In this document: piece after piece, positions 15,883 to 61,430 of the stretch
Layout of the letters: each line of letters starts with the position of its first letter
How positions within the stretch are numbered: position 1 is the first letter of the stretch
Assembly: GCA_964597675.1 (NCBI GenBank)
Contig: CAZQYV010000001.1
Coordinates: 81,644-145,643, forward strand
Length of the DNA stretch: 64,000 bases
Direction of reading: 5' to 3'
Origin: an uncultured Candidatus Saccharibacteria bacterium
Lineage (GTDB): Bacteria > Patescibacteriota > Minisyncoccia > Phycocordibacterales > DATDWN01
The notes under the pieces: generated by a model
The model's database searches: none
Told to the model about the DNA's origin: nothing
What the model saw: only the letters and a program-made list of their open reading frames with translations
Program-made: the position numbers and the translations under genes

Positions 15883-15941
15883 AGTTAAATTTCAAAAAAT
15901 CTCCCTTTGGGGAGATTTTTGTATATATTAAAAAATATGTC

Positions 15942-16330
15942 TGATATAATACACCAATGAACATATCAAAATATCTTAGTACCCCTTTACTCATCCTCAC
16001 CATCCTTCTTACTACACTCTGGAGTGTACACACCCTACACGCACAGTCATCTGGCTACACACCAGTGTCAGTCAACTCTCCCACCAACACCTCACTCAAA
16101 GTGACAGCAACACCTCTAGAGTTAAACAACACCACAAACATGTGGTCCTACAAGATAGACTGGAAGAGAACACGTAATGCACAAGGTTCTATATCTATTG
16201 CAGAAGAGTCATCTCCTACAACCAAAGTCCTCTCACTCTCTCCTGCATCACAAGAGGGTACACAGACTGTCACACTGAAACCTTCTACTACATACCGAGT
16301 GAAGTTTTATAGTACAACGGGGTATGGAGG
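15942..16330 (+). repeat. about 390 bp segment (promoter, signal peptide, N-terminal module) nearly identical to 18770..19158; a 220 bp core is also shared with 12731..12950
   Basis: Direct nucleotide comparison shows only a couple of mismatches over hundreds of bases. Confidence 0.8.
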
Positions 16331-37221: not shown

Positions 37222-37611
37222 ATGAACGATCCAATTGCAGACATGATTATACGTATCAAGAACGCATCAGATTCAAAGAAAGAATCGGTCACTTTACCGT
37301 ATTCAAAGTTGAAACTTGCTATTCTTGATGTTCTTTTGAAAGAGGGTTTCATCAAGTCATTTGGTAAAAAAGGAAAAAAGGTAGCAAAATTTATCGAAGT
37401 TGGCCTTGTATACTCAGATGGTATGCCAAAAATTCACGGAGTTGATCGGGTGTCAAAGACATCAAAACGAGTCTACCAGAAGGCAAAGGATATTCGACCA
37501 GTTAAGAGCGGTTTCGGAGCACTTATTATTTCAACACCACAAGGTATTATTACTGACAAGATAGCTCGGGCAGAACATGTTGGTGGTGAGGTATTGTTCA
37601 AGATCTGGTAA
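37222..37611 (+). CDS. rpsH: 30S ribosomal protein S8
   Basis: MNDPIADMIIRIKNA. Confidence 0.95.
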   Translation: MNDPIADMIIRIKNASDSKKESVTLPYSKLKLAILDVLLKEGFIKSFGKKGKKVAKFIEVGLVYSDGMPKIHGVDRVSKTSKRVYQKAKDIRPVKSGFGALIISTPQGIITDKIARAEHVGGEVLFKIW

Positions 37612-37632
37612 TCGCATTATTTATATACACAT

Positions 37633-38166
37633 ATGTCACGAATCGGAAAAAAAATCATATCAATTCCAGAAAAAACAAGTGTAACGTTCACTTCTGGTGT
37701 ATTAACTGTGACCGGTCCTCAAGGCACATTGTCTCGACCTATGAAGTCTGACATCACTATTTCAGTTGAAGGTTCAACTGTAAACCTTGTGCCAGTAAAA
37801 GAGACAATAGCAACACGAGCACTATGGGGAACATATGCATCTCATATCACAAACATGATTACTGGTGTTAATACTCCTTTTGCAAAGAAATTGATTATCG
37901 AAGGTATCGGCTATAAATCTGAAGTAAAGGGTACAAATCTTGTTTTGGCACTTGGTTTTTCACATCCAGTCAATGTAGCAATCCCTGCAACACTAAAAGT
38001 TACTGCCGAGAAGAACATTTTGACAATTACTGGTATTAATAAAGAAGAAGTTGGGGCGTTTGCAGCACAAATTCGATCTCTTAAGAAGCCAGAACCATAC
38101 AAGGGTAAAGGTATTCGAGGTGAGTTCGAGGTCGTTAAGCGAAAGCAGGGCAAGAAAACCGCCTAA
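37633..38166 (+). CDS. rplF: 50S ribosomal protein L6
   Basis: MSRIGKKIISIP. Confidence 0.95.
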   Translation: MSRIGKKIISIPEKTSVTFTSGVLTVTGPQGTLSRPMKSDITISVEGSTVNLVPVKETIATRALWGTYASHITNMITGVNTPFAKKLIIEGIGYKSEVKGTNLVLALGFSHPVNVAIPATLKVTAEKNILTITGINKEEVGAFAAQIRSLKKPEPYKGKGIRGEFEVVKRKQGKKTA

Positions 38167-38185
38167 CTAATCTGGTTATACGTAT

Positions 38186-38536
38186 ATGAAAACAAACATA
38201 TCAAAAACAACACAGAGACTCCGAAGACGCGCACGCATCCGTGCAAAGATTTCTGGTACCGCACTAAAACCTCGTCTATCAGTATTCAAATCAAACAAAT
38301 ATATTTCTGCACAACTTATCAATGATGAATCAGGTGTTACTTTGGGTACTGCACATTCAAAAGATATGAAAGGAAAATCACTCTTGGAAAAATCAGCATT
38401 GGTTGGAAAGGCGGTTGCAGAATTGGCACAGTCAAAAAAGATAGAGCACGTTGTTTTTGATCGAGGTGGCTTTATTTACACAGGTTGTGTTAAGGCGGTG
38501 GCAGAAGGTGCTCGAGCAGGTGGACTTACATTCTAA
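38186..38536 (+). CDS. rplR: 50S ribosomal protein L18
   Basis: L18 family. Confidence 0.9.
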   Translation: MKTNISKTTQRLRRRARIRAKISGTALKPRLSVFKSNKYISAQLINDESGVTLGTAHSKDMKGKSLLEKSALVGKAVAELAQSKKIEHVVFDRGGFIYTGCVKAVAEGARAGGLTF

Positions 38537-39554: not shown

Positions 39555-40826
39555 ATGACAAATTTTTTCAATAAAATGTTTCTCGTCTTCCAAGATTCTG
39601 TCTTGCGAAAGCGAATATTTTTCACACTCGGAGCATTAGTTTTGTTTCGGGTTCTTGCTGCTATCCCTGTTCCTGGTGTAGATCATGCGGCATTGTCTCG
39701 TTTTTTCACAAATAACGAGTTCTTTGGCTTACTTAACATTTTCTCTGGTGGTGGTCTTTCACAACTTTCGATTGTGATGCTTGGTGTTGGTCCATATATT
39801 ACAGGATCAATCATTATGCAGTTGTTGACCATCATGTCACCTCGACTGAAAGAGATGTACCAAGAGGATGGTGAGGCAGGCAAGAGACGTTTTGCACAAT
39901 ACGGCAGACTTTTGACTGTGCCACTTGCTTTGGTACAAGGTTTTGGTTTTATAAAACTTCTCCAGAGTCAGCAGGTTTTCGCTGCTTTGTCTCCGTTTGC
40001 ATTCGTGGTTAATCTTATCGTTATTACTGCAGGATCAGTACTGCTTATGTGGATCGGTGAGTTGATTTCAGAATATGGTATAGGCAATGGTGTTTCCCTT
40101 ATTATCTTTGCTGGTATTGTTGCTAGTCTTCCTTCATACCTTGGACAGTTAGTTGCCATCTTTGATCCATCACAAATTCCAGTTTATCTTGCCTCAATTA
40201 TTGTAGGAGCAATCGTGGTCATAGGTGTAGTGGTTATAACAGAAGCAGAACGTCCCATCCCTGTAACATATGCAAAACAGGTGCGTGGTAATCGTGTATA
40301 TGGCGGTACATCAACCTATTTGCCACTTCGCATAAATCAAGCGGGTGTTATTCCAATTATCTTTGCTATGTCACTTCTGCTCTTTCCTCAGATGATCGTC
40401 CGTTTCTTGCAAAATGTTGACAACACCACAGTCAAGACAGTTTCAACTTATATGTTGAGTCTTTTATCTAACAGTTGGTTCTATGGCATCGCATATTTCT
40501 TGCTGGTTTTTGTCTTTACTTATTTCTATACAGCAGTGACATTTGATCCAGATCAGATATCTACAAACCTACAGAAGAACGGTGCATTTATCCCAGGTGT
40601 CCGCCCAGGAAAATCGACATCAGAGCATATTGCACGCATTCTTACTCGATTGACACTCGTCGGAGCACTCTTTCTCGGTGTCATTGCTGTATTGCCTCTT
40701 ATCATGAAGGGAATAACTGGTATCCAAGCCCTTTCGATTGGCGGTACAGGACTTTTGATTGTTGTTTCCGTGGTCATCGACCTCATCAAAAAGGTCAACG
40801 CTCAGGTTTCTATCCGAGAGTACTAA
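39555..40826 (+). CDS. secY: preprotein translocase subunit SecY
   Basis: 10-TM SecY family; position after rplO. Confidence 0.95.
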   Translation: MTNFFNKMFLVFQDSVLRKRIFFTLGALVLFRVLAAIPVPGVDHAALSRFFTNNEFFGLLNIFSGGGLSQLSIVMLGVGPYITGSIIMQLLTIMSPRLKEMYQEDGEAGKRRFAQYGRLLTVPLALVQGFGFIKLLQSQQVFAALSPFAFVVNLIVITAGSVLLMWIGELISEYGIGNGVSLIIFAGIVASLPSYLGQLVAIFDPSQIPVYLASIIVGAIVVIGVVVITEAERPIPVTYAKQVRGNRVYGGTSTYLPLRINQAGVIPIIFAMSLLLFPQMIVRFLQNVDNTTVKTVSTYMLSLLSNSWFYGIAYFLLVFVFTYFYTAVTFDPDQISTNLQKNGAFIPGVRPGKSTSEHIARILTRLTLVGALFLGVIAVLPLIMKGITGIQALSIGGTGLLIVVSVVIDLIKKVNAQVSIREY

Positions 40827-40835
40827 TGTTACTTC

Positions 40836-41885
40836 TTATTTATTATCCCAAAACCAGTACTGATTCTTCAGATTCTCACTCAGTCTATATGCGTTCGCAT
40901 GTGATAGAGCCCCAAGATATGATGCGAATGTTTGATTAAAACTTTCTTTTGAAATTATTCCTTTAGTATACGCATTGAATTTATCTCTATGTTTTCTCTC
41001 AATTCGTCTGAGTGTTTTCTTACGTATGAGTCTATGATACGGACGGAGAATATATCCCAGAAAATCAACACTTCCAGATGCTTTCAGTATTTCTACTTTG
41101 TCTGTATGAAGCCGTAATTTGAGACGATTTCCAAGGAACAGGATGATTGGTTTGATTAAATTTTCCAGATATTTTTTGTCGTTCGAGACGATAATAAAAT
41201 CATCGGTGTATCTGCCATAGTGCTCGACTTTCAGTTTTTGCTTCATATACTGATCAAACTCGTTCATATACATATTGGCAAAGAGTTGAGAGGTGAGGTT
41301 GCCAATTGGTACGCCTGTACGAGTAAAAAGGTTGGAATATCCACTCACAAAACTGTCCACAATTTCTCCAATGAGCCATATTACTTCTTTATCCTTTATC
41401 TTTCTTTGGATCAAGGAAAGAAGAATGGAATGATCGATACTGTCAAAGAATTTTCTCACGTCGCATTTGAGAACGTAGCACGCTCTTGTGTAATTTCTTG
41501 AAACTTTACGAATCATACTTTCTGCCACGTCTACTCCTTTGTGTGATCCTTTTTGGATACGACAGGAAAAAGAGGTGGCGATAAATGTCGGCTCAAACAG
41601 GGGATTCAAAATCTGGTAGACCGCATGATGAAGTACTCGGTCCCGAACTGTTGCCTTGTGGATGTGTCGGAGTTTTGGATCACAAATAAAAAAGTCAGTA
41701 TATCCACCGTGTCTGTAAGTCTTGTCCTTCAAATCTCTATGCAGTTGAAAGAGTTCCTGTTCAAGGTTTTTCTCAAACTTCAGAACGTCAGCCTTCTTTC
41801 CTTTGCCGTGTTTGAATTCTTCCCACGCCCAAAACAGGTTCTCTGGTTCTATAATTTTATTAAATAAATTTTTATATACTTTCAT
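40836..41885 (-). CDS. diversity-generating retroelement reverse transcriptase
   Basis: RT motifs including YTDDFII (YxDD) and the DGR-specific IGNLTSQ ([ILV]GxxxSQ) in place of the group II QGxxxSP; the start MKVYKNLFNKI aligns to DGR RT N-termini; the ORF track start at 41954 is probably too long. Confidence 0.8.
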   Translation of the reverse strand: MKVYKNLFNKIIEPENLFWAWEEFKHGKGKKADVLKFEKNLEQELFQLHRDLKDKTYRHGGYTDFFICDPKLRHIHKATVRDRVLHHAVYQILNPLFEPTFIATSFSCRIQKGSHKGVDVAESMIRKVSRNYTRACYVLKCDVRKFFDSIDHSILLSLIQRKIKDKEVIWLIGEIVDSFVSGYSNLFTRTGVPIGNLTSQLFANMYMNEFDQYMKQKLKVEHYGRYTDDFIIVSNDKKYLENLIKPIILFLGNRLKLRLHTDKVEILKASGSVDFLGYILRPYHRLIRKKTLRRIERKHRDKFNAYTKGIISKESFNQTFASYLGALSHANAYRLSENLKNQYWFWDNK

Positions 41886-42237
41886 GAATGATGCAGATAT
41901 ACCGATACTAAAGAAAACATACGAGCTGTACAAGCTCTTCCATGAATACCGCAAGGTAATTTCAAAAGCAAACCGATTTACTATCTATGAACGATGCGAA
42001 AACCTCATTATTGATCTCATTGAATGTTTTTTTGAAGCAGGATACGCCAAAACTGTAAATAAGGCAGTCATTTTGGATAGAGCAAGTGTTCGTCTAAATA
42101 GTTTGCGATTATTTGTTCGTCTGATGAAAGAAACGTATGCAATCGACAATAAAAAATATCTTGCGCTGCAAACAATTATAGATGAGATTGGGAGAATGCT
42201 TGGTGGTTGGATCAGATCAACCGGTCCTACCACTTAA
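41884..42237 (+). CDS. avd: DGR accessory variability determinant (Avd), four-helix-bundle family
   Basis: 117 aa; the C-terminal IDEIGRMLGGWIRS matches bAvd IAEVGRILGSWIAR; its start codon overlaps the RT start on the opposite strand. Confidence 0.75.
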   Translation: MNDADIPILKKTYELYKLFHEYRKVISKANRFTIYERCENLIIDLIECFFEAGYAKTVNKAVILDRASVRLNSLRLFVRLMKETYAIDNKKYLALQTIIDEIGRMLGGWIRSTGPTT

Positions 42238-42242
42238 ACAAA

Positions 42243-42268
42243 AGGTATCCGAATGGATACCTTTTGTG
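42243..42268. terminator. perfect palindromic bidirectional terminator (ends avd on + and the TR transcript on -)
   Basis: aaaaggtatcc-gaat-ggatacctttt. Confidence 0.65.
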
Positions 42269-42299
42269 ATGAAGGGGAGACTTCGGAACGAGACCGGAC

Positions 42300-42408
42300 G
42301 CGGTACCGTAGTTCGCATTGGCATTGTCGAACCAGTTCGTGTCGAACTTGACCTTGCCGTCGTTGAAGTTGAAGTACGGAGCGTGATCGAAGCGAACATC
42401 GGCATCCG
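42300..42408 (-). repeat. DGR template repeat (TR), Asn-codon rich, minus strand
   Basis: The reverse complement aligns to 43700-43800; over a clean core of about 75 nt every difference is an A in TR versus G in VR. Confidence 0.7.
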
Positions 42409-42724
42409 GAATTTGCCCTTGCTCATCCAGAGCACCAGAGCTTGAAAAAGTTTTCTGTTGGAAACAGATCTCAGTCTCACTCTTGAATTTAACTTGGTAG
42501 CACCCGCCATATAGGCTCAGTGGTCCACCTTAAACAAGGGCAAGCAGTATCTCCTTATCACTACACTCTTTTGGAAATCGTAATCTCCAAAACTCTGGTC
42601 GTTTCTCTTATAGAGGGTAAAGAGAAAGAGTTCGGCGACGGCAATCCATAGACGACCGTTCATGAGCCTAGACTCAAAGGAAGTGTACCAGAAAAGATAT
42701 AAATTAAGCAATATTTATGACCTA

Positions 42725-42753
42725 TTGACAAAAAAGCCATTTGGGTGTATAAT
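42725..42753 (+). promoter_or_regulatory. sigma70-like promoter of the DGR target gene (TTGACA, 17 nt spacer, TATAAT)
   Basis: ttgacaaaaaagccatttgggtgtataat. Confidence 0.6.
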
Positions 42754-42788
42754 ATATAGTGGAGGGGCTTTCTGACATTCACTGTTTT

Positions 42789-42835
42789 GAGACGAGCTTT
42801 TTGAGCCTTATTTTAGGACCTAAAAAGCTCGTCTC
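42789..42835 (+). promoter_or_regulatory. 14 bp stem-loop in the about 140 nt 5' UTR of the DGR target gene
   Basis: gagacgagcttttt...aaaaagctcgtctc. Confidence 0.4.
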
Positions 42836-42898
42836 ACAAGGACAAGTCGCAACAAAAGCCGGGGCGAATCTGGTAAATCAGGAAAGGGAGATAACGTC

Positions 42899-43834
42899 AT
42901 GACGACGATTACTCAAGCAACTTCCGGTCAGAAGAAACAGAATAGCCGTTTTCTCGAGGACGCCTTTCAGGCACTCAAAACGGAATTGGAAACCATGTTT
43001 GGTGAACTCGACACCGAGAACGCTCAACGATTCCTCGGTAACGGCGACGAATTCAAAGCCGATGTTCAGAAGGCAGCTCTCGACTCGTTCGGACGCCTGT
43101 CCATCTCGAATCAGTTCGCCAACGAAGAAGTGGAATCGACCTACGGCTACCTCTCGGGCTATCAGAAGCCGAAGGGATTGACCGAGCAGGCCAACCGCTT
43201 GCGTGAACTGTTCTCTGGTGCCGGTTTCGTCAACCTCGATCTGCAAGGCAGAATCGAGAAGGGTGAGATCGCACTGCCAGCATACGCCGAAGGTTGGTCC
43301 GTCATTCCCAACTGGATGAAGAATCCGGAGGCATGGGGCACCTACAACGAGGCACTGCAAAAAGTCCTTGACGCAATCAAGAAGACTCGCAACGGTGCCT
43401 TCTACAACTACCGCGAGGGTCAGATCGGTCCCGAGCGTCTGCGCCAAACGAAGCGTGCGGAGAAATTCTTCCGTGAGCTTTCGGAAGCACAAGGCAATCC
43501 GGATCTCTTAATCGTCCCGACCCAGTTCGGCATCCGCCATCGCGGCCGTTCGGTTCGCCGATCCCGCGAGGTTATGCTGGACAATGGCAACGAGTTCGGA
43601 CTCGGCGCATTCGCAATCGGCATCATGATCCTCGCCCATCCCGAGAGACTGAAAAACGTGGATGATCTGTGGATCGATTGTGCCGGAGACGAATATGCTC
43701 CGGGTGCCGGTGTTCGCTTCGATCGCGCTCCGTACTTCAACTTCAACGACGGCGGGGTCGGGTTCGACGCGGGGTGGACTGGCAGCGCGAGCGGCCGCTA
43801 TGGGTCTTCCTCCGCCTTCCTTCCGCAGCAGTGA
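42899..43834 (+). CDS. DGR target protein (311 aa), GC-rich, with the variable repeat at its C-terminus (C-type-lectin/FGE-like fold suspected); no signal peptide
   Basis: The C-terminus GAGVRFDRAPYFNFNDGGVGFDAGW matches the TR-encoded DADVRFDHAPYFNFNDGKVKFDTNW; ggaaagggag RBS. Confidence 0.7.
   Translation: MTTITQATSGQKKQNSRFLEDAFQALKTELETMFGELDTENAQRFLGNGDEFKADVQKAALDSFGRLSISNQFANEEVESTYGYLSGYQKPKGLTEQANRLRELFSGAGFVNLDLQGRIEKGEIALPAYAEGWSVIPNWMKNPEAWGTYNEALQKVLDAIKKTRNGAFYNYREGQIGPERLRQTKRAEKFFRELSEAQGNPDLLIVPTQFGIRHRGRSVRRSREVMLDNGNEFGLGAFAIGIMILAHPERLKNVDDLWIDCAGDEYAPGAGVRFDRAPYFNFNDGGVGFDAGWTGSASGRYGSSSAFLPQQ
43700..43800 (+). repeat. DGR variable repeat (VR)
   Basis: See the TR entry; the 3' third has diverged with non-adenine changes as well. 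Confidence 0.65.
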
Positions 43835-44027
43835 TCGCTTGCTCCTCGAATTCTTGAGTCTTTTGATTTCTTTTCTCTTGATTCTTGAATTCGCCGGCAA
43901 AATTCGGGCTACTCACAACGTGTGGGTGGCCCGATTTTCTTTTGTATAAAATTAATTATAGGGATTTTTTTGATAGATTTGCTATACTACTTGGTATAGC
44001 ATTTGTTTTATATTTTAACCGTATTTT

Positions 44028-44615
44028 ATGTCTCCTCATACATTTGTGTTTATCGGACGTTCTGGTTGTGGTAAAGGTACTCAGGCGGGTTTGCTCATGC
44101 AGCAGATTGGAGAGAAGAAAGTCGGTGAACCAATTTTTTATCTTGAAACAGGTCAGAAATTTCGCGATTTTATTGGAGGCGCTGGATACACAAACACTCT
44201 CGCACGCACCATCCAAGAAGCCGGAGGACTCCAGCCATCTTTTTTGGCGGTTTGGATGTGGTCAAATATCTTTATTGACAAATTGACTGATAAGGATCAT
44301 TTGGTTATTGATGGTACTCCACGCAAACTTGGTGAGGCAATTATTTTCACCGAAGCAATGAAGTTTTACAATCGAAGACCGATTGTTATATATATCAATG
44401 TATCTCGTGAGTGGTCAGAGGCACGGCTATCAGATCGGCATCGGTCTGACGATATGAGTGAAGTCATAAAAAATCGCCTTGATTGGTTTGACACGGATGT
44501 CTTTCCGGCGGTAGAGTACTTCAAGACAAACCCCGATGTCCAGTTTCTCGATATAAACGGTGAACGAGCGATTGAGGAGATTCAGGATGATATTTTAGAA
44601 AAATTAAAAATTTAA
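44028..44615 (+). CDS. adk: adenylate kinase
   Basis: P-loop GRSGCGKGTQ; normal position after secY, displaced here by the DGR. Confidence 0.8.
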   Translation: MSPHTFVFIGRSGCGKGTQAGLLMQQIGEKKVGEPIFYLETGQKFRDFIGGAGYTNTLARTIQEAGGLQPSFLAVWMWSNIFIDKLTDKDHLVIDGTPRKLGEAIIFTEAMKFYNRRPIVIYINVSREWSEARLSDRHRSDDMSEVIKNRLDWFDTDVFPAVEYFKTNPDVQFLDINGERAIEEIQDDILEKLKI

Positions 44616-52090: not shown

Positions 52091-52193
52091 ATACAGTCCC
52101 TCGAATCCCTCGGGACACTCGACTCGTAAGTACCATCTTGTTTTTAGGTGGTTTACCACGAGCGAGTTCCAAGTAATCTTGGGACGAGTCGAG

Positions 52194-52588
52194 TGGAAGT
52201 GGCGGCATCGAAGCCGCGTCCATAGAAGGAACTAAAATGTGTCTACAGCGTGTAGTTTGTTTTATATTTAATCATCTATACTATGTAACAAACAAAATGT
52301 ATAAGTGACGATTCTCAATGTTTCAAACGATGAGTCGAGACACACCCATGTTCTAGCTAAAAATATATCAATCAACCTCCCGTATTAGCGTCAGGGAAGC
52401 GACCGTCTCCTTGGCGTCGGCTTATGCTCGAGCGAAAGAGAAAGCAAAGTCATTCATACTAAAGTATGGTGATGTTGCTTTTGAAGCTACAGTATTTGCA
52501 TGTAGGCTTTTCTGTACCGTTTTAGGAGAGCACAGAACTCCGCGTTGCGCAGATCAATTCTTTTCTATGTCAAAACCTGTCACCCCCG
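52194..52588 (-). ncRNA. ssrA: tmRNA (ssrA), one-piece, about 395 nt
   Basis: Immediately downstream of smpB; the 5' GGGGGTG pairs with the 3' CACTTCC-A giving a G3-U70 wobble and an A73 discriminator; T-arm GCGGC-TTCGAT-GCCGC; candidate tag frame from about nt 88 ending ...NDFAFSFARA-stop; the exact tag start is unresolved. Confidence 0.6.
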
Positions 52589-56067: not shown

Positions 56068-56141
56068 GCGCGTGTAGCTCAGTTGGTTAGAGCTCGGAGC
56101 TTATACCTCCGTGGCCGGGGGTTCGAGTCCCTCCACGCGCA
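56068..56141 (+). tRNA. tRNA-Ile with anticodon UAU (reads AUA)
   Basis: Cloverleaf: acceptor GCGCGTG/CACGCGC, D stem GCTC/GAGC, anticodon stem CGGAG/CTCCG with loop CTTATAC, T arm GGGGG-TTCGAGT-CCCTC. Confidence 0.7.
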
Positions 56142-60699: not shown

Positions 60700-61430
60700 T
60701 TTTGAGTAGGAGAGAGCGAGAATTTTTGCCTCGAAATTTTCAATTTCGTCAAAAGGAGCGAGAGTTTCTCACTCGACTTAAAAATTTCTCGTCAGAAATT
60801 TTTAGTCTGTGCACTGACTCGCGTCCTGCTTTTGCTAAAGCAGGAATCGCTCCGTCGTTCGAATCTCGACACAATCTGCTAACAGCAGATTGTTCTCTCT
60901 CCGTAAACAAAAAGCGCCTTTCGGGATTTTGTTGGCGGAGAGAGCGAGAGTTTCTCCTACAATTTTTTCTCGTCGCCACTCGAAAAAATTCTAGGCGCCA
61001 GATGTGCGACAAACTCTGCTAAGTTTGTAGACCGCACATCTGTTCGAATCTCGCGCGCATAGCTTCGCTTTGCTTCTCTCCGCAAAAAGAAAACCCGTTT
61101 CGGGGTCCTTTTTGCGGAGAGAGCGAGATTCGAACTCGCGGTTCCAATTAAGGAACGACGGTTTAGTAAACCGTTGATTTAAACCACTCATCCATCTCTC
61201 CATATACTCGCTATGCTCGAATGGAGCTGCTTTCGCAGATCGATGGATTCGTGGTCGGTGATTACACCGGCTCGGTGTGAAGTAGTTCACACCATCGCCC
61301 ATCTCATCCATCTCTCTGTATACTCACCTGAACATTAGGAATATAGCATTTTTCTGTGGATTGATAAAGTTTTTTTGCGGAGACGGGGAGAGTTTCTGCC
61401 TCGAAATTTTCAATTCCGTCAAATTGAAAA
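60700..61430. repeat. tRNA-fragment repeat region: three copies of a tRNA 3'-end core (gcggagagagcgaga and gcggagacggggaga classes), each followed by gtttctgcctcgaaattttcaatt[c/t]cgtcaaa-type flanks, plus a partial duplicate of the 5' end of the 61115-61201 tRNA
   Basis: Copies at 60708-60752, 60945-60990, 61377-61424 and 61290-61318. Confidence 0.6.
61115..61201 (-). tRNA. type II (long variable arm) Ser-like tRNA with apparent anticodon ACU
   Basis: Acceptor GGAGAGA/TCTCTCC, G73 discriminator, anticodon stem ACGGT/ACCGT with loop TTACTAA, variable arm GTTCC/GGAAC, T arm GCGAG-TTCGAAT-CTCGC. Confidence 0.55.

Follow-up and report, generated by a model that had tools for sequence, protein, structure and literature searches.

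The window (the whole 64,000-nt stretch of DNA that was analysed) carries a DGR cassette ordered as RT (minus strand), avd (accessory variability determinant, plus strand), a stem-loop, TR (minus), a structured RNA (minus), the TR-RNA promoter (minus) beside the target promoter (plus), and the target gene with its VR (plus) (Table 1). The RT ORF matches the RVT_1 profile and contains the motifs IGNLTSQ (I194-Q200) and YTDD (Y226-D229) of DGR-clade RTs, which agree with the [I/L/V]GxxxSQ and YxDD signatures and are invariant in our alignment A1. It has 7161 homologues, the best 120 of which are nearly all 345-352 aa long, most of them exactly 349 aa, and the exact 349-aa product was found in a public protein collection. 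A scan of metagenome contigs with RT as the only query yielded 19 loci, all at no more than 66% identity; the close relatives of the RT were obtained via exact-protein look-ups. Some of the close-relative neighbourhoods resemble phage DNA and hold genes for an S49 peptidase, a recombinase or a terminase.

Avd residues 8-112 align with positions 3-106 of the 107 positions of PF22296 (104/107 covered), and the N-terminus MNDADIPILKK is kept in relatives. The exact 117-aa Avd is absent from the public protein collection. With an Avd-family gene, TR and RT on the same strand and avd inverted between them, the cassette belongs to type B3. An earlier note on this DNA had described divergent RT and avd genes as uncommon for DGRs. 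This does not hold: type B3, TR-(avd)-RT, makes up 90% of CPR DGRs according to Wu et al. 2018 (Nucleic Acids Res 46:11, PMC5758913), and in our synteny comparison with related DGRs the divergent layout was the rule among the relatives of this RT (53 divergent loci), not an oddity. We conclude that the layout is already catalogued for the DGRs of ultra-small (CPR) bacteria and that this cassette is one more example of the standard arrangement.

Table 1. Coordinates and supporting evidence of the cassette features in the window.
Feature	Position	Strand	Evidence or remark
DGR reverse transcriptase gene, 349 aa	40836..41885	-	RVT_1, E 4e-24; homologues; motifs
AT-rich island, RT codons 2-13, candidate avd promoter and leader	41847..41882		94% A+T
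CATG junction, start codons overlapping by 2 nt	41883..41886		sequence; same in related loci L003, L029, L071, L100-L105
avd, 117 aa	41884..42237	+	PF22296 bAvd, E 1e-16
Perfect 13-bp stem-loop, ACAAAAGGTATCC-loop-GGATACCTTTTGT	42238..42267		between avd stop and TR
Template repeat (TR)	42281..42410	- (RT strand)	inverted repeat with 43699-43828
Structured 5' domain of TR RNA, ~245 nt	42431..42675	-	conserved, covarying
Candidate TR RNA promoter: TTGCTT, 18-nt spacer, TACACT, extended -10 TG at 42690-42689	42682..42711	-	predicted start ~42675
Candidate target-gene promoter, consensus sigma-70: TTGACA, 17 nt, TATAAT	42725..42753	+	12/12 match
DGR target gene, 311 aa, VR 43699-43828	42899..43834	+	ORF; VR/TR alignment

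The 311-aa target protein has no Pfam match. Its VR, which pairs with TR as a 130-nt repeat, lies at the 3' end of the gene, as expected of a DGR, and stops 6 nt short of the final base of the target stop codon. With TR read on the minus strand, where its adenines lie, the first 80 nt of TR and VR differ at 12 positions, 10 at TR adenines and 2 elsewhere, whereas the last 50 nt hold 7 adenine-site mismatches and 16 others, so that the adenine pattern is present in the 5' part and not in the 3' part. The 3' ends (IMH/IMH*) have only TTCCG(A/C)AG in common, and the preceding 40 nt diverge at non-adenine positions.

The start-codon junction of RT and avd

The overlap of the two divergent starts in a CATG palindrome, as first described for this DNA, is borne out by the sequence. 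Within tttCATGaat (41880-41889), the RT ATG reads 41885-41883 on the minus strand and the avd ATG 41884-41886 on the plus strand. To see how far this geometry extends, we compared related loci. CATG is kept in 6/6 loci (L100-L105) from the four closest RT relatives looked up, whose RTs are 70-83% identical. Across the 53 divergent loci CATG occurs 10 times and CATATG 6 times, and in 41 of them the gap between start codons lies between -15 and +21 nt (from a 15-nt overlap to 21 nt apart). The other divergent gene pairs of the window have 32-184 nt between genes. Because the closest-relative loci all keep CATG and the other divergent pairs are so much further apart, the overlap is more than chance; the loci compared show, at the level of sequence, that a spacer-less head-to-head junction is the norm of the family. 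CATG was also considered as a methylation or restriction palindrome, and this was rejected, since relatives show CATATG, spacers or longer overlaps at the same junction.

Both start codons are fixed by homologue lengths, N-terminal conservation and upstream stops in relatives, which together show CATG to be the true RT/avd junction of the predicted genes. In alignment A1, RT residues W21, F24 and K28 never vary, and conservation reaches 90% or more at positions 1, 8 and 11. In L024, L018, L019 and L015 a stop 0-3 codons ahead of the ATG closes the RT frame, and the avd ATG is likewise closed by a near-upstream stop in L015, L003, L009 and L011. The in-frame ATG at 41954 that had been suggested as a possible RT start is in fact a TTG, and the 23-codon extension from it is not conserved in relatives. 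No further canonical in-frame starts were found near the N-terminus of RT or avd.

It is therefore exceedingly improbable that the overlap is an annotation artefact, with one gene starting elsewhere behind a normal spacer. An in-frame TTG does precede each ORF (41954 for RT, 41803 for avd), the RTs of L101 and L104 were called 17-18 codons too short, and since Avd has no entry in the database, a gene caller picked another start or none. Yet an upstream shift of either start would widen the overlap rather than abolish it, the relatives' stop codons close such extensions, there is no downstream in-frame start ahead of conserved residues, and the modal RT length is 349 aa.

Control of avd, TR RNA and RT

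Without intergenic DNA, the region upstream of avd consists of the first ~13 RT codons. No other 36 nt of the RT-avd locus are as AT-rich as the island that directly precedes avd, and at 0.06 the GC content of these RT codons 2-13 is the lowest found at the 5' ends of 44 genes of the window. Read on the plus strand, it contains TATAAT (41850-41855) and TATATAC/TATACT (41873-41880). In a broad set of relatives, synonymous divergence of the RT was 0.12 in codons 1-10, the lowest window along the gene, and 0.31 in codons 6-15, against 0.55 for the whole gene; in a close set, the 5' end scored 0.11 versus 0.48. The ratio of 5' to remaining GC content was 0.48 in B3 RTs (n=39). Collinear DGR RTs gave 0.80 (n=21; Mann-Whitney p = 1e-6) and B3 avd genes 0.74 (p = 1e-6). 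The 5' codons of avd showed no extra constraint in the broad set (0.51 vs 0.58). In the close set avd codons 1-10 dip mildly (0.31 vs 0.475) and the first five are invariant, which may reflect some constraint on the RT-proximal side. A -10-like hexamer stands at the RT-anchored TATAAT position in 15/40 loci, largely dictated by an Ile-Ile dipeptide.

These comparisons show almost AT-only, synonymously near-invariant 5' codons to be a sequence signature specific to RTs that face a divergent avd. What is new here is this nearly frozen stretch of RT codons. Because only B3 RTs show it and the 5' end of avd lacks it, the upstream control region of avd probably lies inside the RT coding sequence. 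The earlier proposal that each promoter lies inside the other gene thus stands in part: the DNA upstream of each gene is the coding sequence of the other and an embedded element is supported for avd, but the avd 5' codons offer no comparable conserved element for RT. The AT island would act as avd promoter and/or as a region for ribosome loading independent of a Shine-Dalgarno (SD) site. It could just as well assist RT itself, as a start region for translation without an SD site. The likeliest avd -10 would be the TATAAT noted above, giving a ~20-nt A/U-rich leader that would bear the TATATAC motif found before many genes of this genome. By analogy with the pentamer-RT complex of the Bordetella phage, Avd may be required in ~5-fold excess over RT, in which case a dedicated, conserved avd control region makes sense. 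All promoter assignments are candidates, as consensus matches in AT-rich DNA.

The structured 5' domain of the TR RNA was found by an nhmmer profile in 26 related loci besides the window, always on the RT strand. Compensatory changes affect 28/35 predicted pairs, and 94% of cells are paired versus 33-54% with partners slid; 0/500 shuffles matched these values. Rfam was searched with 40500-44200 (E up to 1) and with the whole window (gathering thresholds); the only matches were spurious miRNA ones on a hairpin at 42785-42839, plus a tmRNA and two tRNAs elsewhere, with no DGR- or RT-associated motif and no match for the 5' domain. Among 23 aligned relatives a -10-like hexamer was detected in 18, and in 16 of these it lies 13-14 nt before a conserved GGC. 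A TR RNA start from the mirror of the target-gene -10 (ATGTCA-18-TATTAT, 42778-42749) was dropped, the -10 at 42687-42682 being positionally conserved. The target-gene promoter stands back-to-back with that of the TR RNA, and relatives keep it as TTGACA-17-TATACT. RNAduplex of the TR-flanking sequences (an analogue of the 'cPRT stop') gave a mean z-score of -0.8.

Between avd and TR, a hairpin lies 0-42 nt from the avd stop in 34/37 B3 loci, and 30 of these have 10-15 bp within ~21 nt; close relatives show compensatory changes in the stem-loop. A T-tract (at least 6 of 9) stands beside it on the RT strand in 16/31 loci and on the avd strand in 10/31, which is ambiguous as to a terminator acting in one direction. 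The hairpin may be an Avd-binding stem-loop of the TR RNA, a terminator working in both directions, or the two at once; an analogous Avd-binding stem-loop 3' of TR has been described (bioRxiv 10.1101/2023.10.23.563531). In the clade of the window, UUUUGUUUA follows the stem-loop on the RT strand, so the TR RNA is possibly terminated before RT; the stem-loop may do so efficiently enough to block read-through into RT.

For RT itself, neither synonymous sites nor a -10 scan revealed a conserved promoter inside avd: synonymous conservation gave no clear dip in the broad set and a mild one in the close set. On the RT strand within avd, the promoter scan returned weak, non-conserved matches, such as TTCAAA-18-AATAAT (42036-42007) and TGTACA-16-TAGTAT ending at 41905. 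RT would probably be expressed at a low level, either by read-through of the TR RNA past the stem-loop, antisense across avd, or from such a weak promoter within avd. Since the start codons overlap, any -10 boxes must lie outside the junction, in the opposite coding regions. The two mRNAs would then either overlap antisense at their 5' ends or both be leaderless, and we favour the overlap.

Leaderless transcripts had been suggested in the earlier note from TATA-like boxes before both starts. For avd the box exists, TATACT (41875-41880) followed by ttc and the ATG; for RT no TATA-like hexamer is nearer than TATATC (41901-41896), 10 nt before the ATG, and nothing -10-like stands at a usable distance. 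In promoters of the E. coli type, transcription starts ~6-10 nt after the -10 hexamer, so TATACT, only 3 nt before the avd ATG, is too close to serve as its -10. Our scan placed the next candidate for avd, TATAAT, 28 nt before the ATG. On the RT side the closest hexamers are CATCAT and TAGTAT, whose ends lie 2 nt and 19 nt upstream of the ATG, respectively. At the ~6-10 nt that a leaderless start calls for, only degenerate hexamers without the final T are present. Neither gene has an SD site, which is uninformative because only 8/62 ORFs of the window have one. TATAC/AATAC-type motifs are ~7-fold enriched before many starts, including those of genes inside a ribosomal-protein operon. The TATA and SD evidence thus does not appear to indicate leaderless initiation, and a literature search for DGRs with leaderless transcripts found nothing relevant.

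Several observations still fit a scheme in which both mRNAs start at the A of their ATG, from face-to-face promoters with -10 boxes in the opposite gene's first codons. No spacer is available to hold a leader and neither gene has an SD site; AT-rich hexamers occur near the avd ATG (TATATA at 41873-41878, TATAAA/TAAATT in relatives), those of relatives put the A 6-7 nt downstream in some loci, and several genes of the window have a TATAAT-like hexamer 6-9 nt before their ATG, for example ctgaTATAATacaccaATG at 15957. This scheme is nevertheless unlikely. The better-placed avd hexamers lack the conserved final T, RT has no -10-like hexamer 5-9 nt upstream, and the avd 5' codons that would hold its box are unconstrained in the broad set. 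The drift in start spacing across the clade leaves no single fixed leaderless geometry everywhere, the SD deficit is genome-wide, and the TATAC motif also precedes operon-internal genes. No likelier is the proposal that the AT island benefits RT, as an unstructured A/U-rich stretch on which ribosomes initiate without an SD site, with transcription of avd beginning at a more distant upstream site, as it would in read-through from secY. Gene 5' ends are indeed AT-enriched across the genome (mean GC 0.34 vs 0.42), and secY (39555-40826, plus strand) ends 9 nt from the stop of the convergent RT, with no terminator found between the two. Yet the GC drop at RT is far larger than at any other gene of the window and exceeds that in the RTs of collinear DGRs and in the avd genes of these same B3 cassettes, for which the translation problem is equal; close relatives also keep the island in different neighbourhoods, with no co-oriented upstream operon seen.

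The cassette might instead be decaying, which would leave the junction without present regulatory meaning in this genome. Over its last 50 nt, VR fits the TR of L100 (4 non-adenine mismatches) better than the resident TR with its 16, so homing from the present TR may be impaired. Decay is very unlikely all the same, since the ORFs of RT, avd and target are intact and the catalytic motifs present, TR and VR keep their adenine-specific pattern over the first 80 nt, and relatives share the TR RNA with its promoter as well as the stem-loop. Taken as a whole, our explanation is that this is the CATG junction of a B3 CPR DGR, in which the AT island would control avd while RT would be expressed at a low level by read-through or from a weak promoter; we judge it somewhat likelier to be right than wrong. 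A more far-reaching joint reading would make the spacer-less B3 junction a selected compact control module. In it, the first ~13 RT codons would be recoded as avd promoter and leader, and RT would be expressed only as a tail of the TR RNA, antisense through avd. Convergent transcription and sense-antisense pairing would couple Avd and RT/TR-RNA output, setting a high Avd:RT ratio, and the RT-recruiting RNA structure would have moved from 3' of TR (Bordetella type) to the 245-nt covarying domain 5' of TR. As a package of all these parts, this reading is speculative and rather doubtful.

Implications and comparison with known systems

The head-to-head layout of CPR DGRs should not be flagged as anomalous in future scans. 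Gene callers mishandle the RT/avd junction, as seen from the RTs cut short in L101 and L104 and from the lack of an entry with this Avd start in the public protein collection, and the rule that avd and RT abut at CATG, at CATATG or within ~20 nt can correct the annotation of thousands of CPR DGRs. To our knowledge, the CPR-type DGR class has never been reconstituted. The AT-recoded RT 5' end, the candidate TR-RNA promoter and the 5' RNA domain provide concrete, clonable boundaries of transcription units, which are needed for heterologous expression of a CPR DGR or for comparing its priming with that of the Bordetella system.

Among gene overlaps, divergent ones form the least frequent class and are mostly lineage-specific accidents. 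The junction described here resembles other head-to-head overlapping genes of compact prokaryotic and phage genomes in that upstream signals would be embedded in the partner's coding sequence; unlike those accidents, it is conserved without a spacer across a large RT clade, although its offset drifts from -15 to +21 nt. The symmetric bidirectional promoters of Warman et al. 2021 reportedly have outward-facing starts ~18 bp apart, and their -10 boxes overlap in the interval. Divergent transcription from an AT-rich region is common to both, but the RT/avd junction is not a member of that class.

The order and strands of the cassette are those of type B3 in Wu et al. 2018 (PMC5758913), and the host lineage agrees too, the relatives being Patescibacteria/Paceibacterota-like. 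The passages of that paper found by keyword make no mention of avd-RT spacing, overlapping starts, promoters or TR-adjacent hairpins; its classification is coarser than the detail given here on the junction, on the AT-recoded 5' end of RT and on the 5' RNA domain. The cassette shares with the prototype, the DGR of Bordetella phage BPP-1 (mtd-avd-TR-brt), a DGR-clade RT, a bAvd-family protein, a TR/VR pair (here with adenine-specific differences in its first 80 nt) and a stem-loop just 3' of TR that resembles the one bound by Avd (bioRxiv 10.1101/2023.10.23.563531). The BPP-1 genes are all collinear, whereas avd is inverted here. A ~140-nt structured spacer 3' of TR in BPP-1 binds RT and carries the priming adenosine; here, the sequence 3' of the stem-loop is antisense avd, with no strong synonymous-site conservation, and a large, conserved structured domain lies 5' of TR.

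RT-avd junction and cassette layout

The start codons of the DGR reverse transcriptase gene (RT, minus strand) and the accessory variability determinant gene (avd, plus strand) overlap by 2 nt in a CATG (41880-41889, tttCATGaat). The earlier note had described this overlap, and sequence, homologue lengths, conservation and upstream stops all agree with it. The best 120 of 7161 RT homologues are almost all 345-352 aa long, mostly exactly 349; conservation of the N-terminus begins at position 1 in the homologue alignment, and several relatives have a stop codon 0-3 codons 5' of the ATG, which together fix the RT start. The avd start is fixed by the same kinds of evidence. Neither gene has a downstream in-frame alternative start before its conserved residues. 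On all these grounds we conclude that the 2-nt overlap is real. The same note's alternative RT start, an ATG at 41954, was not borne out: the codon there is TTG, and the extension is not conserved. Gene callers steer clear of the overlap, and existing annotation suggests that starts at this junction are systematically misplaced. In two of the related DGR loci (L-numbers), RT was called 17-18 codons short (L101:753-807, L104:3947-4001). For the window, the public protein collection includes the RT and target proteins but not the exact 117-aa Avd.

Coordinates of the cassette and other features of the window
Feature	Position	Strand	Basis
secY	39555-40826		Neighbouring gene
RT	40836-41885	-	RVT_1 (E 4e-24), 349 aa; ATG reads as CAT at 41883-41885
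avd	41884-42237	+	PF22296 bAvd (E 1e-16; 104/107 profile positions covered), 117 aa; ATG 41884-41886
Stem-loop	42238-42267		Perfect 13 bp, directly after avd stop; A-tract and T-tract flanks
Template repeat (TR)	42281-42410	-	Adenine-specific mismatches, first 80 nt
Structured RNA domain	42431-42675	-	Nucleotide profile, covariation
TR-RNA promoter	42682-42711	-	TTGCTT (42711-42706), 18-nt spacer, TACACT (42687-42682), extended -10 TG
Target-gene promoter	42725-42753	+	Consensus
Leader hairpin	42785-42839		18 bp
Target gene	42899-43834	+	311-aa ORF, VR at 3' end
Variable repeat (VR)	43699-43828	+	Paired with TR
adk	44028-44615		Neighbouring gene
tmRNA gene	52191-52587	-	Whole-window Rfam scan
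tRNA gene	56068-56141	+	Whole-window Rfam scan
tRNA gene	61115-61201	-	Whole-window Rfam scan

The cassette sits between secY and adk in a Patescibacteria/CPR-like genome. The insertion point of the whole cassette (39555-44615) is the ribosomal-protein (spc) operon; RT and secY are convergent, with stops 9 nt apart. Close relatives of the cassette occupy other neighbourhoods, some of them phage-like (S49 peptidase, serine recombinase, terminase, KAP NTPase). Two segments form a 130-nt inverted repeat whose copies, read on the minus strand, differ over the first 80 nt at 10 adenine sites and 2 other positions. Since these mismatches fall mainly at adenines of 42281-42410, this copy is the TR, on the RT strand, and the other is the VR. 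The gene order is thus RT(-), avd(+), TR(-), target(+), or TR-(avd)-RT.

The VR is a chimera. Over its last 50 nt (43779-43828 versus 42281-42330), it differs from the resident TR at 16 non-adenine positions, but from the TR of locus L100 at only 4. This suggests a past swap of TR or target-gene segments, and possibly impaired homing. The target gene is richer in G+C (GC 0.57, GC3 0.68) than the rest of the window (~0.41 and ~0.34), carries one of the genome's few strong Shine-Dalgarno (SD) sites (aaagggag), and encodes a protein with no Pfam match. The composition of RT and avd is host-like. An 18-bp hairpin occupies the target-gene 5' leader between promoter and SD; it is kept in L100, L102 and L104 with compensatory changes (gagacgagct/agctcgtctc versus gagacaagct/agcttgtctc), and spurious Rfam miRNA matches stem from it.

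The junction among related elements

We searched an RT alignment against one genome of each species, which gave 80 related loci; a metagenome scan contributed 19, and exact-match queries with the window's own RT and four of its closest homologues another 7. RT and Avd were placed in each locus by phmmer, and starts were set by alignment. An avd and a confidently placed RT start are present in 77 loci; avd is divergent and adjacent in 53 of these, and in 41 of the 53 the start codons range from a 15-nt overlap to a 21-nt gap. The junction reads CATG in 10 divergent loci and CATATG in 6. CATG is found in all six looked-up loci of the closest relatives (L100-L105; RT 70-83% identical), with the flanking 20 nt almost unchanged. 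Collinear avd and RT are found in relatives below ~41% identity (cyanobacteria, Chloroflexota, others). Other divergent gene pairs in the window are 32-184 nt apart, so that a junction without a spacer is unusual for the genome and normal for the element.

The earlier note had called the arrangement uncommon and proposed a synteny comparison with related DGRs; among CPR DGRs it is not uncommon. The description holds only against the Bordetella-type prototype. The parts of Wu et al. 2018 (PMC5758913) drawn on here catalogue a divergent avd as architecture B3, TR-(avd)-RT, in which avd runs in the opposite direction, report it for 90% of CPR DGRs, and state that such cassettes require at least two transcription units; overlapping start codons, promoters and hairpins next to TR go unmentioned in them. 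The window's cassette is a further example of this known architecture.

Head-to-head junctions with CATG or a 2-nt spacer also occur on Bacteroidota-binned contigs whose RTs are ~37% identical (L071:241-242, Lewinella MAG; L077:2385-2388, Aquimarina MAG). Unless these short contigs are mis-binned, the layout is not strictly confined to CPR. In one subclade (L028, L033, L037, L039, L083, L084, L087, L088, L095; RT ~42-51% identical to the window's), the avd-RT spacer is longer and a run of 8-11 G lies 15-35 nt 5' of the RT start. As homopolymers of 8-11 nt are prone to slippage, the divergent control region of this subclade could be phase-variable.

Upstream signals of avd and RT

The junction is in itself a modest finding; the parts worth following are the recoding of the RT 5' end and the RNA domain 5' of TR. 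With no spacer between RT and avd, the upstream signals of each gene are embedded in the opposite gene, as the earlier note had it, and the two mRNAs are therefore either both leaderless or overlap in antisense at their 5' ends. The note had favoured leaderless transcripts on account of TATA-like boxes before both starts. An E. coli-type -10 hexamer usually ends ~6-10 nt before the transcription start. TATACT (41875-41880) ends 3 nt 5' of the avd ATG, TTATAT and TATATA, which lie at a usable distance from that ATG, each miss a key base of the consensus, and a hexamer scan of the RT side found no -10-like hexamer ending 5-9 nt from the ATG. An SD site precedes only 8 of the 62 long ORFs of the window, and this general rarity weakens any argument for leaderless initiation from the missing SD at avd and RT. 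The window contains no 16S rRNA gene for comparison with the anti-SD. Moreover, TATAC, AATAC, ATACA and TAATA are over-represented ~7-fold in the 20 nt upstream of start codons (for example 37611-37635, 38166-38188 and 15940-15959), including inside the ribosomal-protein operon, as at L6 (tatatacacatATG). The TATATAC before avd matches this genome-wide motif and so is no specific sign of a promoter; the motif may be either a non-SD ribosome-binding signal or internal promoters of leaderless mRNAs. Given this geometry, the general scarcity of SD sites and the genome-wide motif, leaderless initiation at avd and RT is not indicated. On balance we lean towards antisense overlap of the mRNA 5' ends.

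The coding sequence at the RT 5' end bears on where avd's signals would lie. Synonymous divergence was scored as how often two sequences sharing an amino acid differ in codon. Across 13 B3 loci it is 0.12 for RT codons 1-10 and 0.31 for codons 6-15, versus 0.55 for the whole gene; in the five closest relatives, codons 1-10 score 0.11 versus 0.48. Codons 1-10 are by far the gene's lowest window, none other falling below 0.44 except the overlapping 6-15. The corresponding values for avd codons 1-10 are 0.51 versus 0.58 (broad set) and 0.31 versus 0.475 (close set). With 2 G/C in 36 nt, RT codons 2-13 (41847-41882) are richer in A+T than any other stretch of the RT-avd locus, and the GC content of the RT 5' end is the lowest of 44 genes in the window (mean 0.34). 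Across B3 RTs, GC is 0.185 in codons 2-13 versus 0.385 in the rest (ratio 0.48, n=39), compared with ratios of 0.80 in collinear DGR RTs (n=21) and 0.74 in avd of the same B3 cassettes (Mann-Whitney p = 1e-6 for the former, p = 1e-6 for the latter). Low synonymous divergence and a B3-specific drop in GC together indicate a second, sequence-level constraint tied to the adjoining divergent avd. Its simplest reading is that the RT 5' end would serve as avd's upstream control region. A perfect TATAAT lies in this AT island (41850-41855); as the avd -10 box, it would give a ~20-nt A/U-rich leader ending in TATATAC. A -10-like hexamer occurs at the same RT-anchored position in only 15 of 40 loci, which leaves the exact position of the avd promoter uncertain.

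The TR RNA and its 5' domain

No conserved RT promoter was found inside avd. The RT strand carries a positionally conserved -10 box 5' of TR: of 23 aligned relatives, 18 have a detected hexamer, and in 16 of these it lies 13-14 nt ahead of a conserved GGC. The box has the form TAnnnT and frequently includes the extended TG. The window's version stands back-to-back with the target-gene promoter and predicts a TR-RNA start near 42675; the transcript would cross a 245-nt conserved domain, then TR, then the 13-bp stem-loop. A hairpin occupies this position between avd stop and TR in 34 of 37 B3 loci, with a 10-15 bp stem in 30; its sequence differs between loci, with compensatory changes among close relatives. 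It fits the putative Avd-binding stem-loop that Handa et al. (bioRxiv 10.1101/2023.10.23.563531) predicted immediately 3' of TR in 207 of 278 DGRs, CPR included. Within the window's clade, UUUUGUUUA follows the hairpin on the RT strand, making it terminator-like as well, and there it looks like a bidirectional terminator. T-tracts at the hairpin are inconsistent across the family. Given both observations, RT would be made in one of two ways: by read-through of the TR RNA, which would cross avd in antisense, or from a weak avd-internal promoter.

The 5' domain is more conserved in nucleotide sequence than the flanking genes. A nucleotide profile built from five sequences found it in 26 related loci besides the window, in every case on the RT strand and 5' of TR, including loci whose RTs are only ~45-60% identical. 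RNAalifold on a 23-sequence alignment (L100:560-821, L102:3200-3460, L104:3130-3399, L024:4190-4451, 18 further loci and the window) gave 35 pairs in 7 helices, 28 of them with compensatory double changes. Standard pairs fill 94% of cells and the covariation score is 0.72; with partners displaced by 1-3 columns these values fall to 33-54% and 0.11-0.18, and 0 of 500 shuffles reached the observed values. These controls support the predicted structure. The domain had no match in Rfam 15 at E up to 1, including the RT-1 to RT-19 motifs (Weinberg et al. 2017), of which RT-10 lies in the Bordetella TR-RT spacer.

In the Bordetella phage, the large structured segment lies 3' of TR, whereas in the window the structured domain lies 5' of TR and, beyond the stem-loop on its 3' side, the DNA is avd in antisense, without strong synonymous-site conservation. 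The 5' domain may therefore take the role of the Bordetella 3' segment; by this analogy we infer that it may be the part of the TR RNA that recruits RT and Avd in B3-type DGRs.
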